From assembly GCA_963780185.1 (NCBI GenBank), contig CAWABA010000009.1, positions 96,001 to 160,000 of the forward strand: 64,000 bases of DNA, given 5' to 3'. Position numbers and translations under genes: made by a program. Within the stretch, counting starts at the first letter, position 1, and every line of letters starts with the position of its first letter. Shown one piece after another: positions 9,736 through 26,009 of the stretch. The DNA comes from Candidatus Bathyarchaeota archaeon (lineage in GTDB: Archaea > Thermoproteota > Bathyarchaeia > Bathyarchaeales > Bathycorpusculaceae). The notes below the pieces were generated by a model, which ran no database searches, had not been told where the DNA came from, and worked only from the letters and a program-made list of their open reading frames with translations.

Positions 9736-10296
9736 ATGTCTTGTCACGGAGGTTTCAGCCTAGATGAAGCAACGAGGCGCACATGGTACAACCCAGAGGC
9801 TATACTGCAAGATTTAGGTCCAGGCATGGTTTTTGTGGATGTGGGCTGCGGCGACGGCTTCTTCAGCATTTTGGCAGCCAAGAAGGTAGGTCCAAAAGGC
9901 AAAGTTTACGCCGTAGACTCAGACGCTTCAGCCATTGCAAAACTCAACCGCAAAGCCCAAGCAGAAGGGCTAAAAAACATTAGCAGCAGAGTCGGCTCGG
10001 CTGAGGAAACATTTTTCTGCGTCGGCTGCGCTGATTTTGTTTTCTTCAGCATGGTGCTTCATGACTTCGCTGACCCAGCTAGGGTGCTGCAGAACGCCCG
10101 AAAAATGATTAAACCAAATGGGACACTGTTTGATTTAGACTGGAAAAAACAGGAGACGCCTTTTGGTCCGCCCTTCCAAATCAGGTTCAGCGAAACATAC
10201 GCTTCAAGCCTAATCCATGCTGCAGGCTTCCGAGTTAACGGCGTCAGAGCAGTTGGAAACTACCATTACGTTCTAACAGCTGAGCCCGTGCTTTAA
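9736..10296 (+). CDS. class I SAM-dependent methyltransferase
   Basis: VDVGCGDG, VLHD. Confidence 0.9.
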   Translation: MSCHGGFSLDEATRRTWYNPEAILQDLGPGMVFVDVGCGDGFFSILAAKKVGPKGKVYAVDSDASAIAKLNRKAQAEGLKNISSRVGSAEETFFCVGCADFVFFSMVLHDFADPARVLQNARKMIKPNGTLFDLDWKKQETPFGPPFQIRFSETYASSLIHAAGFRVNGVRAVGNYHYVLTAEPVL

Positions 10297-10299
10297 GAA

Positions 10300-10905
10300 T
10301 CAACTTTTTTCTGCGGCGGCGTAAAGCTCGAGGAGGTCCTGTTTGAAGAGTTCAGGCTGGTTTAGGTATGCTGAATGCGACGCATCCTTGTAAACTAAGA
10401 GTTTACCTTTAGGCAGTTTGCCAGCTAAGGTTCTCATCTCTTCCCCTGAAACAACATTGTCCTGTGAACCCCAAATTATCCTGACGGGAAACCTGAATTT
10501 TGGGTAAGATGCAACCAAATCTTCTATGAGTGCGTGTGCGGGTGAAACCAGAAGTAGCCCTTTTACGGGAAACTTTGAGGCGTACATCAAAGCTATGTAG
10601 CCGCCTAAGCTGGCGCCAACCAACACAGGCACAGCGGAGCCGAAAACGCCCTGAATTGCCTCCGACAAAACCTGGACGTTTGTCTCTGGGTTTCTGTTTT
10701 TCGGTTGGCAACTGCTTTTTAACCCGTAAGGCATGTCCAAAGCCAAAAAAGGCATATGTTTTTCAGCCAGCAGGTTCGTTGCGCCGATGCGTTGCCAAAC
10801 GTTGGCTGTGTAGGATAAGCCGTGTAGGAAAACAACTGGGACGCCGGGTACGTTATGAATTATTGCTTGGCAGTTGTGTCCAGCCAGGGTTAATGTTTTT
10901 TCCAT
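10300..10905 (-). CDS. alpha/beta hydrolase
   Basis: FLHG, GASLGG, WGSQD, SHSAY. Confidence 0.9.
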   Translation of the reverse strand: MEKTLTLAGHNCQAIIHNVPGVPVVFLHGLSYTANVWQRIGATNLLAEKHMPFLALDMPYGLKSSCQPKNRNPETNVQVLSEAIQGVFGSAVPVLVGASLGGYIALMYASKFPVKGLLLVSPAHALIEDLVASYPKFRFPVRIIWGSQDNVVSGEEMRTLAGKLPKGKLLVYKDASHSAYLNQPELFKQDLLELYAAAEKS

Positions 10906-11001: not shown

Positions 11002-11478
11002 TTGACGGTTAAAGTTGGCGATAAAGCGCCTGATTTCACTTTGCCTTCACAGATAGGTGATAACGTGACGCTTTCAGAGTACATAGGCAAAAAGAACATT
11101 GTGTTGTATTTTTACCCGAAAGACGAAACCGCTGGTTGCACCGCAGAGGCTTGCAGTTTTCGGGACAGTTATGATGAGTTGGCAAGCTTGGGCGCTGAGG
11201 TTTTGGGGGTAAGCGGGCAAAGTGTTGCGTCGCACAAATCCTTTGCAACACATTACGGTTTGCCTTTTATCTTGCTCAGCGACGAGGATAACAAGGTACG
11301 CAAGCTTTACGATGTCCCATCCACCATGGGTCTCATCCCGGGAAGGGTCACCTACATAATTGACAAGAAAGGCGTGGTTAGGCACATTTTTAATTCCCAG
11401 ACTCAAACCCGACAGCACGTCGAGGAAGCCAAGGCGACGCTGAAAGAACTCGAAAAAGAACAGCAAGCCACTGGCTAG
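11002..11478 (+). CDS. bcp: peroxiredoxin, BCP/PrxQ type
   Basis: FYPKDETAGCTAEACSFRD. Confidence 0.92.
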   Translation: MTVKVGDKAPDFTLPSQIGDNVTLSEYIGKKNIVLYFYPKDETAGCTAEACSFRDSYDELASLGAEVLGVSGQSVASHKSFATHYGLPFILLSDEDNKVRKLYDVPSTMGLIPGRVTYIIDKKGVVRHIFNSQTQTRQHVEEAKATLKELEKEQQATG

Positions 11479-11486
11479 CGTAGGAC

Positions 11487-12728
11487 GTGCGCATGCTCAA
11501 TTTATATAATTCTCTTACGCGGAAAATTGAGGCTTTTCAGCCTGCAGAGGACATGCAGGTTAAGATGTACACTTGCGGTCCATCGACCTACCAGAGGGCT
11601 CACATCGGGAACTACCGCACCTTCCTCTTCGAAGACATACTGCAGCGTTACCTCGAGTACCTCGGCTACAAAGTCAAGCGGCTCATGACCTTAACCGATT
11701 TGGAAGACAAAGCCATCGCTCAAGCAAAAAAAGAAAACCTCACAGTCGAGGAAGTAACCGCAAAAAACGAAGCCGTCTTCTTCCAAGACTTCAAACTCCT
11801 AAAAATCAAAACACCCGACTACCCCGTGAGAGCTTCATCAGCCGTCGACCAAGCAGCAAAACTAATCGCCGAACTCACCGAAAAAAACTGCGTGTACTGG
11901 CACACGTATAAGGGCGCAGAAAACGCTTATTTTGACCCCCTCAAATTCGAGGGCTTCGGAAAACTAGCCCATTTGGATATGCGTAAATGGCCGAAGAAGA
12001 GGCGCCATTTCCACAAGGACACTTATCCGGGCACGCCTTGGAACATGGGTGACTTCATCGTTTGGGACGGCTGCAAAACGGGCGGTGTCTGTTATAGGAC
12101 GTCGATTGGCAGCGGCAGACCAGCATGGAACATTCAAGACGCCGCCATCGTAACCAAACATTTAGGTTTCACGGTGGACGTTGCCTGCGGAGGAATCGAC
12201 AACTTGGTACGCCACCACGACTACACCCTTGCCATCGCCGAAGCCGTCAGCGGCAAACAGTTTAGCCGATACTGGCTTCATGGAGCCCACCTGTTTGTCA
12301 ACGGCAAAAAAATGTCCAAAAGCGTCGGCAACGTCATCTACACAGACGACGTCACAAAAAAGGGCTTCACAGGAGAGCAACTCAGATTCTTCCTCATCTA
12401 TGCCCCATACAGGGAAAAACTAAACTTCACCTATGAAAAACTGGCTGAAACCAGTCGGAAACTTGGCTCCTTCAGAGACATGGTTGGGGCGGTGCAGAGG
12501 CGGCGGGAGAGCGATTCAAGTCGGGAAACAGCAGCGCTTATCGACAGTATAGTTCCCAGTTTCGAAAACGCTGTGAACAACGATTTAGGAGTAAAAGCTG
12601 CCTTCGATAGCATCTACGAAACACTCCGCAAGCTGTATGACAGCAAGGAGCAGCTAAGCGGAAAAGACTCCGAGAAACTTTTGGGTGCGCTGCGCCGGGT
12701 TGACTCTGTGTTTCAATGCCTGCTCTAA
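11487..12728 (+). CDS. cysteinyl-tRNA synthetase paralogue (catalytic and DALR domains only)
   Basis: YTCGP, HIGN, KMSKS present; WHIEC reads WNIQD; no anticodon-binding domain. Confidence 0.85.
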   Translation: MRMLNLYNSLTRKIEAFQPAEDMQVKMYTCGPSTYQRAHIGNYRTFLFEDILQRYLEYLGYKVKRLMTLTDLEDKAIAQAKKENLTVEEVTAKNEAVFFQDFKLLKIKTPDYPVRASSAVDQAAKLIAELTEKNCVYWHTYKGAENAYFDPLKFEGFGKLAHLDMRKWPKKRRHFHKDTYPGTPWNMGDFIVWDGCKTGGVCYRTSIGSGRPAWNIQDAAIVTKHLGFTVDVACGGIDNLVRHHDYTLAIAEAVSGKQFSRYWLHGAHLFVNGKKMSKSVGNVIYTDDVTKKGFTGEQLRFFLIYAPYREKLNFTYEKLAETSRKLGSFRDMVGAVQRRRESDSSRETAALIDSIVPSFENAVNNDLGVKAAFDSIYETLRKLYDSKEQLSGKDSEKLLGALRRVDSVFQCLL

Positions 12729-12735
12729 CTTTGGT

Positions 12736-12984
12736 TTAAACTAAGTCGCCGACAAGTTTGACTCTTGCCAAGTTTTCTTCCCTGTGCGGAGCCGCTTCTA
12801 GTTCCCCGGTCAAATCCTTCCCAGCCTGATGCATTCCCAAGTGGTCTCCGTCGCTCCAAAGGCCGCTCTGCGAAACATCGTAAACTTTTCCTTTGTACGC
12901 AAGGTAGGCTGGTTTGCCGTTTTTCCCGTTGCTCTCTTCTAGTTCTTGTTTGGTTACTTTTCTTGTTTCAGCCACAAAAATCAC
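12736..12984 (-). CDS. cytochrome b5-like heme/steroid-binding protein
   Basis: GKVYDVS, HxAGKDLT, APH. Confidence 0.88.
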   Translation of the reverse strand: MIFVAETRKVTKQELEESNGKNGKPAYLAYKGKVYDVSQSGLWSDGDHLGMHQAGKDLTGELEAAPHREENLARVKLVGDLV

Positions 12985-25169: not shown

Positions 25170-26009
25170 TCAAAATTCTTTTGTGGTTTCAAAGGCTCTC
25201 ATTGCTGCGAAGAACATGATTGCGGCGAATCCGGCGAGAAACGCAAAAGAGATAAGAATCGTCTGAGGCGCAGTAGAGTAGTGAACTCCAAAAGAGTAGA
25301 AATCTGAGCCTATTCCAAAATAACGCATACCATTAATGAAGTGTGTGAGAGGATTAAGGTTGCTTACAATTTTTATCGCCGACGGCATCGAATCGATTGG
25401 ATAAAGTGCGTTGCTCGCAAAAAATAGTGGTAATGTTAAAAGAGTTATTATGGCTTGACTAACATTATGGTCCCTTACCTTCATCGCGATAGCAGTTGAA
25501 AGAAACATCAAGCCCAAAGAAAAAAGTGCGGCAAACATTAACACGCCCGCTATTGCAGTTAGGGTACCTGCAATTGTTAACCCGAAGAAAAAATAGACTC
25601 CAAGAACATACCCAAACGCGATTACAATGGCTGTTTGAATCAAAGCTTTTGTAATTCCTCCTAAAGTCACCCCTAAAAGTATCTGCGAACGAGGCATCGG
25701 CGAAACCACAATCAACTTCATCAACCCATATTGCTTGTCGAACTGCACGTTCTGCCCCGCATATAGGCAAGTGAAAAGAATAGTCATGCCTACCACTCCA
25801 GCCGCCATGAACGTCATATAGTTGGCAGAAACCACACCAGGCGGGTTAGAGCCGCTGGGAAAGAAAAGGGTGATGTTGCTTGACATCGAGATCCCGTAAA
25901 GAACTAGCCAAAGCACTGGCTGGATAAGAGCGGAAAAAAGAAGCGCCTTTGAACGGAAGAATTTCACCATGTCCCGCCAATAAATTGCAACAAATCCATT
26001 TTCCATCAA
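25170..26009 (-). CDS. ABC-2 permease (DrrB-like)
   Basis: 6 TM, SNALYP, NPLT. Confidence 0.9.
   Translation of the reverse strand: MMENGFVAIYWRDMVKFFRSKALLFSALIQPVLWLVLYGISMSSNITLFFPSGSNPPGVVSANYMTFMAAGVVGMTILFTCLYAGQNVQFDKQYGLMKLIVVSPMPRSQILLGVTLGGITKALIQTAIVIAFGYVLGVYFFFGLTIAGTLTAIAGVLMFAALFSLGLMFLSTAIAMKVRDHNVSQAIITLLTLPLFFASNALYPIDSMPSAIKIVSNLNPLTHFINGMRYFGIGSDFYSFGVHYSTAPQTILISFAFLAGFAAIMFFAAMRAFETTKEF

Follow-up and report, generated by a model that had tools for sequence, protein, structure and literature searches.

The window analyzed here is a stretch of 64,000 nucleotides from Candidatus Bathyarchaeota archaeon (GenBank assembly GCA_963780185.1, contig CAWABA010000009.1, positions 96,001 to 160,000 of the forward strand). 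The gene of interest encodes a paralogue of cysteinyl-tRNA synthetase (CysRS) and is found between genes for a peroxiredoxin and a cytochrome b5-like protein. Its product retains the class I catalytic core, carries a remodelled pocket that is conserved in its relatives and ends before the anticodon-binding domain, and it may serve as an accessory ligase rather than as the CysRS of the cell. The gene and its signature features are listed below, with pocket positions numbered as in E. coli K-12 CysS.

11487 to 12728, + strand, from GTG (or from ATG at 11493): CysRS-type paralogue, an open reading frame with a match to PF01406
11574 to 11612, + strand: CGPS, with Cys28 kept, and the HIGN signature; Cys28, His37 and Asn40 are each present in 214 of 215 family rows
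11985 to 12020, + strand: family-specific basic CP-domain loop KWPKKRRHFHKD, opposite E. coli LQAGARV (Q164-A167)
12114 to 12140, + strand: GRPAWNIQD, with W205 kept and H206N, E208Q and C209D; W, N, Q and D are each present in 215 of 215 rows
12210 to 12227, + strand: RHHDYT, with P233R, H234 and H235 kept, E236D, N237Y and E238T, as read from the family alignment
12309 to 12323, + strand: KMSKS loop; K in 212, M in 213, S in 210 and K in 213 of 215 rows

Translation from the GTG at 11487 gives 413 residues and from the ATG at 11493 gives 411. The ATG is the likelier start because most relatives are 411 residues long and an AGGA sequence stands 8 nt upstream of it. A model that had read this DNA without database searches (the sequence-only reading) described a 413-residue class I enzyme with CGP, HIGN and KMSKS motifs, and the open reading frame, the Pfam match and the motif coordinates confirm that description. 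The CysRS catalytic domain (PF01406) was matched at residues 17-322 (7.2e-72). Of the curated NCBIfam models, TIGR00435 (cysS) scored 294.3 bits, below its cut-off of 340, with profile positions 1-396 of 466 covered, and TIGR03447 (MshC) scored 165.8 bits against a cut-off of 485.1. The closest solved structures are CysRS enzymes (8qhp, 4.1e-60; E. coli 1li5, 2e-50), with MshC weaker at 4e-34. An AlphaFold2 model built from 21 family members (mean predicted local distance difference test score 91.0, predicted template modelling score 0.91) was matched by Foldseek best to CysRS 8qhp (template modelling (TM) score 0.89) and then to MshC 8hfn (TM 0.83). With its Rossmann fold, near-invariant HIGN and KMSKS motifs and well-scored model, the protein has the core of a class I synthetase.

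In the 411-residue form, CGPS occupies residues 28-31, HIGN 37-40, GRPAWNIQD 208-216, RHHDYT 240-245 and KMSKS 273-277. Cys28, Gly29, Thr68, Trp205, His234 and His235 of E. coli CysS are unchanged in the window protein, and H206N, E208Q, C209D, P233R, E236D, N237Y and E238T are substituted. Over 215 aligned family members, Trp205, Asn206, Gln208 and Asp209 are found in every row, Cys28 in 214, the His-His pair at 234-235 in 213, Tyr237 in 213, Asp236 in 212 and Arg233 in 210, with Met at position 233 in three rows labelled Methanofastidiosum or Thermococci. Near-invariance extends to Thr68-Asp69 and the entire adenylate pocket, and the final KMSKS residue is Ser in 196 rows and Arg in 14. Position 238 is the variable one (Thr 161, Asn 26, Ile 13, Val 7, Ala 5). 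Because the substitutions are near-invariant in 215 relatives, they are a family signature and not sequencing errors. Cys28, Cys209, His234 and Glu238 of the E. coli enzyme are what we take to be the ligands of the cysteine-selecting zinc. The family keeps Cys28 and His234, has Asp at 209 and T/N/I/V/A at 238, and so lacks the canonical zinc/cysteine pocket. The readings of GRPAWNIQD and HHDYT made from the sequence alone, including the changed equivalents of Cys209 and Glu238, were borne out by alignment to E. coli K-12 CysS, and the suggested check on WNIQD conservation found W-N-x-Q-D and R-H-H-D-Y kept in 210-215 of the 215 relatives. HIGN, on the other hand, is no peculiarity of the paralogue, because it is also the reading in the canonical CysRS that this genome encodes.

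The chain stops near the equivalent of E. coli residue 400, with 4 residues beyond that point as opposed to 58-62 in canonical enzymes, and it has no anticodon-binding domain at its C terminus. An earlier description of a stop directly after the DALR helices stood in part: the end does fall before the anticodon domain and C-terminal helices are present in the predicted model (H314-407), but no DALR family scored on the window protein in the Pfam scan. A second change lies in the CP domain, where E. coli L-Q-A-G-A-R-V (Q164-A167) aligns with K-W-P-K-K-x-R-R of the invariant family loop KWPKKRRHFHKD. W-P-K-K falls opposite Q164-A167, and P167, D176 and Y178 are invariant in alignment A1. Residues 164-167 of the D. 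tiedjei CysRS are described as the site of first-base-pair recognition (PMC5389517). The family is also basic, with a median isoelectric point (pI) of 9.03 (n=210, 95% above 8) versus 5.96 for canonical enzymes (n=104, 21% above 8); the first 400 residues of canonical enzymes have a median of 5.79 (n=94). The rebuilt loop and the basic pI suggest that the acceptor is probably anionic and not tRNA-Cys as a normal CysRS sees it. Loss of the anticodon domain has happened more than once, since four CysRS-like proteins of about 410 residues (P0130, P0136, P0140 and P0160) have no C-terminal domain and keep the canonical GRPGW[HS]IEC and HH[ED]NE pocket. A further protein, P0150 (405 residues), reads AEPAWNVQC and NHHENT, that is, the W-N-x-Q of the family with Cys209 retained. 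It is the nearest sequence outside the family clade in the tree described below (support 0.42) and may be an evolutionary intermediate.

The source genome of the window (G000; 2.75 Mb, 93% complete) also encodes the standard enzymes for Cys-tRNA. A canonical cysS (C5:15285-16676, minus strand, 506.9 bits) and SepRS (C5:12419-13969, minus strand, 486.7 bits, above cut-off) are both present on contig C5, so that two standard routes exist without the paralogue. The sequence-only reading had asked for such genes elsewhere in the genome, and its claim that the gene is a paralogue holds, with canonical cysS, SepRS and tRNA-Cys genes all in the same genome. The window protein is about 37% identical to the canonical CysRS of this genome. 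SepRS, cysS and a tRNA-Cys(GCA) gene are clustered at C5:12419-16917, outside the window, and because they adjoin, the direct and indirect routes share one cluster. In every genome checked the paralogue coexists with canonical cysS and/or SepRS. SepRS accompanies it in G000, in Methanoperedens (G272) and in 5/5 Methanofastidiosum-like genomes; a strict link to SepRS was dropped, as three paralogue-bearing bacterial genomes (G269, G270 and G271) were searched and SepRS was not found.

The family is widespread. A word-indexed protein search returned 4354 proteins at E<=1e-10 among 8000 scored, and the best 120 of these are 387-438 residues long and 69-100% identical. Their database names are 'class I tRNA ligase family protein' at NCBI and 'cysteinyl-tRNA synthetase' at JGI. 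An exhaustive search of 50%-identity representatives added members of about 400-424 residues at 40-54% identity. A FastTree phylogeny was built from 173 sequences over 396 columns, comprising representatives of 380-620 residues, the paralogues of the loci and, for an outgroup, 3 MetRS sequences, to the exclusion of shorter fragments and of proteins with several domains. In it the family forms one clade of 50 leaves (support 1.0, stem 0.35) in which archaea and bacteria are intermingled. Four leaves of the clade fail the strict motif pattern, two with Met233 and two divergent. Scanning a single genome for each species turned up 557 encoded relatives. The best 80 of these are mostly from Bathyarchaeia, with archaeal labels Methanoperedens, Methanocella(les), Hadarchaeum, Methanofastidiosum and Thermococci and bacterial labels Deltaproteobacteria/Syntrophobacteraceae, Nitrospirae/Dissulfurispiraceae and Spirochaetaceae. 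The distribution is thus patchy: besides Bathyarchaeia it takes in other archaea that are anaerobes and members of four bacterial phyla. The counts in the groups surveyed were as follows.

Genus of G000: paralogue in 30/41 genomes (23/30 of the high-quality ones)
Class of G000: 12/201 genomes, one copy frameshifted
Phylum of G269 (Syntrophobacteraceae-labelled): 12/401 genomes
Phylum of G270 (Dissulfurispiraceae-labelled): 13/251 genomes
Phylum of G271 (Spirochaetaceae-labelled): 18/301 genomes
Phylum of G272 (Methanoperedens): 9/301 genomes
Phylum of G273 (Methanofastidiosum-labelled): 16/133 genomes

These numbers are not those of a housekeeping gene: canonical cysS is present in 40/41 genomes of the genus, the sole miss being 56% complete. 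Four of the 30 genus copies are damaged (a frameshift in G175, in-frame stops in G258 and G253, and only residues 1-196 in G252), and G261 retains a 177-residue remnant. Intact copies in the genus are 61-83% identical to that of the window, and canonical cysS is 70-93% identical in the same genomes. Given this identity where the gene is kept, the patchy counts, the damaged copies and the mixed tree, the paralogue is an accessory gene that is under purifying selection where kept, has moved by transfer and has been repeatedly lost. Two loci labelled Methanocella sp. (L062) and Sulfotelmatobacter sp. (L069) have the Bathyarchaeia-type gene order and nest among Bathyarchaeia in the tree, and they are probably mis-binned contigs rather than transfers. 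Ten longer relatives were also found, none above 36% identity. Most of these ten (P0271-P0279 and P0134) join a canonical CysRS to a PALP domain (PF00291, cysteine-synthase-type), the two with a source name being labelled Nanoarchaeota and Woesearchaeota, and one (P0277) is a CysRS fused to a family-2 glycosyltransferase. As functional clues these fusions were dropped, being at most 36% identical and mostly canonical CysRS.

The genes that flank the paralogue in the window are the following.

11002 to 11478, + strand: bcp / PrxQ-type peroxiredoxin (PF00578, 9.7e-40; NF006960, 3.7e-31, below its cut-off)
12736 to 12984, - strand: cytochrome b5-like heme/steroid-binding domain protein of 82 residues (PF00173, 5.5e-10)

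The end of bcp is 8 nt from the GTG and 14 nt from the ATG of the paralogue, and the paralogue and the cytochrome b5-like gene converge with a 7-nt gap, much as had been noted from the sequence, the spacing from bcp being 14 nt rather than 8 if the ATG is used. The short spacing suggests that bcp and the paralogue are probably co-transcribed in the window. In a first set of 80 loci, 42 have bcp directly before the paralogue (-1) in the same orientation, all of these with the Bathyarchaeia synteny, and 39 have the cytochrome b5-like gene directly after it (+1) in the opposite orientation. The two genes nevertheless come and go separately, because each occurs without the other: six loci of Bathyarchaeia synteny (L035, L057, L059, L065, L069 and L072) have the paralogue without bcp, and in G102 bcp directly adjoins the cytochrome b5-like gene with no paralogue between them. 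Where genomes of the genus lack the paralogue, the rest of the locus is conserved; bcp and the paralogue are both missing from G255 and G239, and in G127 the block from the hydrolase to the paralogue is missing. Outside the Bathyarchaeia-synteny clade bcp is not the neighbour of the paralogue. An obligate coupling was therefore rejected on the strength of these independent losses, and the peroxiredoxin coupling proposed in the sequence-only reading comes down to local synteny. A cytochrome b5-like copy that is 58-70% identical is present in 5/11 genus genomes without a paralogue match, one of which is G261, the genome with the remnant. Upstream of bcp, positions 9736-10905 of the window hold a gene for an S-adenosylmethionine-dependent methyltransferase (PF13847, 1.8e-21) and a divergent alpha/beta hydrolase gene (PF00561, 4.6e-16) that travel with the locus in 45-48/80 loci. 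Elsewhere, Bathyarchaeum-type loci (L012-L016 and L084-L103) have a Y-family DNA polymerase gene (PF00817, 2.3e-53) 3' of the paralogue on the same strand and MsrB (PF01641) 2-3 genes upstream of it, and in Desulfobacterota-type loci an OsmC-hydrolase fusion is encoded 2 genes upstream.

For a comparison across lineages, genes within three positions of the paralogue were clustered over 133 loci, made up of the first 80 and 53 new ones from the phylum surveys (60 were fetched, of which 5 nearly duplicated loci of the first set and 2 lacked the motif pair, and these 7 were dropped). Only two neighbour families occur in at least three synteny groups, peroxiredoxin (3 groups) and the MatE transporter (9). 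In 12 loci with differing other flanks, MatE (PF01554, 1.3e-51) directly precedes the paralogue (-1) in the same orientation, and its gaps to the paralogue are 3, 12 and 43 nt in L093, L139 and L170. Other exporters were seen in particular lineages. For example, Spirochaete-type loci have an ATP-binding cassette (ABC) ATPase gene at +1 (9 loci) and an ABC-2 permease gene at +2 (7 of these) on the same strand, with an 8-nt gap or a 4-nt overlap. The same pair is convergent with the paralogue in 5 Methanoperedens-type loci, the permease is at -2 in Hadarchaeum, and a CNNM/CorC transporter gene is at -1 in 4 Desulfobacterota-type loci. Together the MatE, ABC-2 and CNNM families account for 29/515 genes within two positions of the paralogue versus 6/1331 at four or more, with a base rate of 14/3190 open reading frames in G000, the families having been chosen after they were seen beside the gene and the related loci being non-independent and amounting to about five separate associations.

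Redox genes near the paralogue were also counted. Post hoc, the first 80 loci showed genes for peroxiredoxin, thioredoxin, flavin mononucleotide (FMN) reductase, nitroreductase, superoxide dismutase, two disulfide reductases, MsrB and OsmC. The retest used a seed set fixed beforehand and the 53 new loci, which fall into 27 synteny groups. It gave 5/300 near genes versus 4/568 far genes, and 5/27 versus 4/27 groups, against a base rate of 13/3190 open reading frames in G000. The signal is concentrated in Desulfobacterota-type loci, and a link between the paralogue and a redox or oxidative-stress neighbourhood is weak at best. Thus, the redox metabolite suggested by the sequence-only reading has redox genes beside some first-set loci in its favor, but the signal was not clearly replicated on the new ones.

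How the family relates to known enzymes is best seen by comparison with four of them. It shares with canonical CysRS (PDB 8qhp, 1li5 and 1u0b) the fold, HIGN, KMSKS, Cys28, Thr68, Trp205 and His234, and differs in the six fixed substitutions at positions 206, 208, 209, 233, 236 and 237, the unconserved residue 238, the missing anticodon domain, the basic loop in place of the QAGA motif, the basic pI and the patchy accessory distribution; the other copy in G000, at 506.9 bits, passes the TIGR00435 cut-off that the paralogue does not. MshC is the cysteine:GlcN-Ins (glucosaminyl-inositol) ligase of mycothiol synthesis and presumably keeps a Cys/Cys/His metal site. Like the family, it is derived from CysRS, has about 410 residues (413-414 in the chains of PDB 3c8z and 8hfm) and is without an anticodon domain. 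The family is nevertheless a weaker match to MshC than to CysRS (4e-34 versus 4e-60), has a changed metal site, and occurs in archaea and anaerobic bacteria rather than, as far as seen, in Actinobacteria. MshC is described as a tRNA-independent ligase (PMC9437257). The CysRS* of Desulfobacterales is a second CysRS without an anticodon domain and with a CP1 motif changed at 164-167 (Mukai et al. 2017, PMC5389517), and the family has both of these traits. Compared by description, its motif is W-P-K-K rather than the P-T-V-S of CysRS*, and the main text of PMC5389517 reports no change of the metal pocket for CysRS*. CysRS* is encoded behind selB* and selC* tRNA-Cys(UCA) (PMC5389517), a context in which the family is not found: no selC*-type tRNA was detected in 91 loci, and no selB was seen by eye in the neighbour lists, a profile search for selB not being part of this. 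Likened by description only, GluQRS (YadB) is the fourth enzyme, a truncated GluRS paralogue that glutamylates the queuosine of tRNA-Asp; it comes from another synthetase family but is likewise a class I paralogue without an anticodon domain, and it acts on RNA. GluQRS is named in Table 1 of PMC9437257, and in the parts of that review consulted MshC and CysRS* are the only CysRS paralogues named. The family is likewise unmentioned in the portion seen of a 2022 survey of cysteine-encoding systems (PMC8762117), and full-text literature searches found no description of it in print. Results of the present analysis include the separate losses of bcp and the paralogue, the tests of a tie to tRNA-Cys or to SepRS, the shift in pI, the alignment of the CP1 motif and the operons with exporter genes.

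Tentatively, and well short of certainty, we read the gene as encoding an accessory ATP-dependent, adenylate-forming ligase, a horizontally spread offshoot of CysRS that is not the CysRS of the cell. A non-housekeeping ligase role is the best reading, and it is partly supported, because the gene is a paralogue with a conserved, remodelled pocket, no anticodon domain and an accessory distribution. The same traits lend partial support to the amino-acid ligase proposed in the sequence-only reading. Real adenylate chemistry is argued by the near-invariance of HIGN, KMSKS and Thr68-Asp69. The enzyme would bind a metal through Cys, Asp and His, and such a site with an open fourth position could still hold zinc and bind a thiolate. 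Cysteine or a similar thiol, or else a small polar amino acid, would be activated as the aminoacyl-AMP and passed to an anionic acceptor rather than to a tRNA-Cys read by its anticodon. By analogy with MshC, that acceptor would most likely be a small molecule, a glycolipid or an envelope precursor, and the co-operonic MatE, ABC-2 or CNNM exporter found in several lineages would handle the product or the acceptor. A thiol amino acid is a plausible substrate. The non-cysteine substrate proposed earlier is not established, because Cys28, Gly29, Thr68, Trp205 and His234 are kept, Asp can bind zinc, and three CysRS-like proteins have Asp at 209. In a more specific version, a tRNA-independent ligase would couple cysteine, or another small amino acid bound at the Cys/Asp/His metal site, to an anionic precursor of the membrane or envelope, such as a lipid head group of the glucosaminyl-inositol type resembling the acceptor of MshC, and the co-operonic MatE/MurJ-like or ABC-2 transporter would flip or export the product. 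This version strikes us as decidedly unlikely. No glycosyltransferase or deacetylase recurs beside the paralogue in the neighbour lists, which were not searched specifically for the genes that accompany MshC (mshA, mshB and mshD).

Several observations weigh against an accessory ligase of this kind. The proposed catalysis, metal, donor and acceptor are all deduced from sequence. An RNA acceptor would suit the basic charge and the remodelled acceptor-stem loop equally well, and with most cysteine-recognizing residues kept the protein could still be a cysteine enzyme acting on tRNA. Three full-length CysRS-like representatives of 458-462 residues (P0173, P0232 and P0247) read WHIEDT, with Asp for Cys209 yet with His234, Glu238 and the C-terminal domain present, so functional CysRS enzymes may accept Asp as a ligand. 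In five Methanofastidiosum-like genomes (G273, G1535, G1533, G1540 and G1543) the paralogue is the sole TIGR00435 match, at 300-313 bits and below the cut-off. Canonical cysS was not found in any of the five, SepRS is clear in them at 517-525 bits, and the paralogue may have a residual CysRS role there. Finally, the exporter association was recognized after the fact, and in the clade of the window itself no exporter gene was found within 13 kb of the paralogue, the nearest ABC-2-like open reading frame being at 25170-26009.

The alternative that survives best, although we consider it somewhat unlikely, is an anticodon-blind enzyme that aminoacylates or modifies RNA, charging a special RNA with cysteine or a related amino acid through an acceptor stem or other site contacted by the basic CP loop, much as CysRS* does with selC* tRNA-Cys or GluQRS with tRNA-Asp. 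CysRS* is described as having the same two changes, a lost anticodon domain and an altered 164-167 motif (PMC5389517), the family is basic, its sequence conservation is high for an accessory enzyme, and no protein partner gene is universal across lineages. On the other hand, no tRNA gene is regularly close to the paralogue: ARAGORN made 11 tRNA calls in 10/91 loci, none of them tRNA-Cys. Of the two tRNA-Cys(GCA) genes in G000, each of which has G1:C72 and U73, the second type was detected at >=97% in G264 alone among the other genus genomes. With 2/41 genomes carrying it and 30 carrying the paralogue, it was rejected as a dedicated partner. This second isodecoder (C5:36880-36955) has a lower GC content and differs in its acceptor, D and anticodon stems. 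One of the ARAGORN calls, a 'tRNA-Pyl(cta)' with a 6-nt intron at L074:2330-2431 on a Bathyarchaeia contig, is probably false. Moreover, the MatE and ABC-2 operons have no obvious tie to RNA charging, and the altered zinc site has no counterpart in what the main text of PMC5389517 reports for CysRS*.

An improbable alternative is a back-up CysRS that makes Cys-tRNA-Cys under stress or from imported cysteine and that might tolerate oxidants better with one zinc-binding thiolate replaced by a carboxylate. The retained cysteine-recognizing residues, the three full-length proteins with Asp209 and the 5/5 Methanofastidiosum-like genomes with no other CysRS-like gene would fit, and an engineered CysRS without its anticodon domain is described as partly active in vivo (PMC5389517). 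Stress genes (peroxiredoxin, MsrB, superoxide dismutase and OsmC) also adjoin the paralogue in some lineages, but the redox-neighbour signal replicated weakly. The protein also scores below the cysS cut-off (294 versus 340 bits), its acceptor-stem motif is replaced rather than conserved, it coexists with canonical cysS and/or SepRS in all genomes checked, and it is often lost or broken. A catalytically reduced binder, one that senses or sequesters ATP, a thiol or a metal, would suit an accessory gene in which position 238, taken as a zinc-ligand position, is no longer conserved, but it is very improbable because the near-invariance of HIGN, KMSKS, Thr68-Asp69 and the adenylate pocket in 215 rows is hard to explain without catalysis.

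Truncated synthetase paralogues have a record of revealing unexpected chemistry, with MshC, GluQRS, CysRS* and EpmA leading to thiol cofactors, RNA or protein modification and recoding. The present family is large, with 557 relatives in the genome scan and thousands of metagenomic matches, and it is at home in anaerobes of peat, sediment and the subsurface. The exporter operons provide a concrete handle for experiments on it. If the envelope-precursor version is true, anaerobic archaea and bacteria would possess a new system for envelope modification or for low-molecular-weight thiols. More generally, identification of its substrate would reveal either a new metabolite or envelope modification in poorly known archaea, Bathyarchaeia among them, or an RNA-charging enzyme that works independently of the anticodon.

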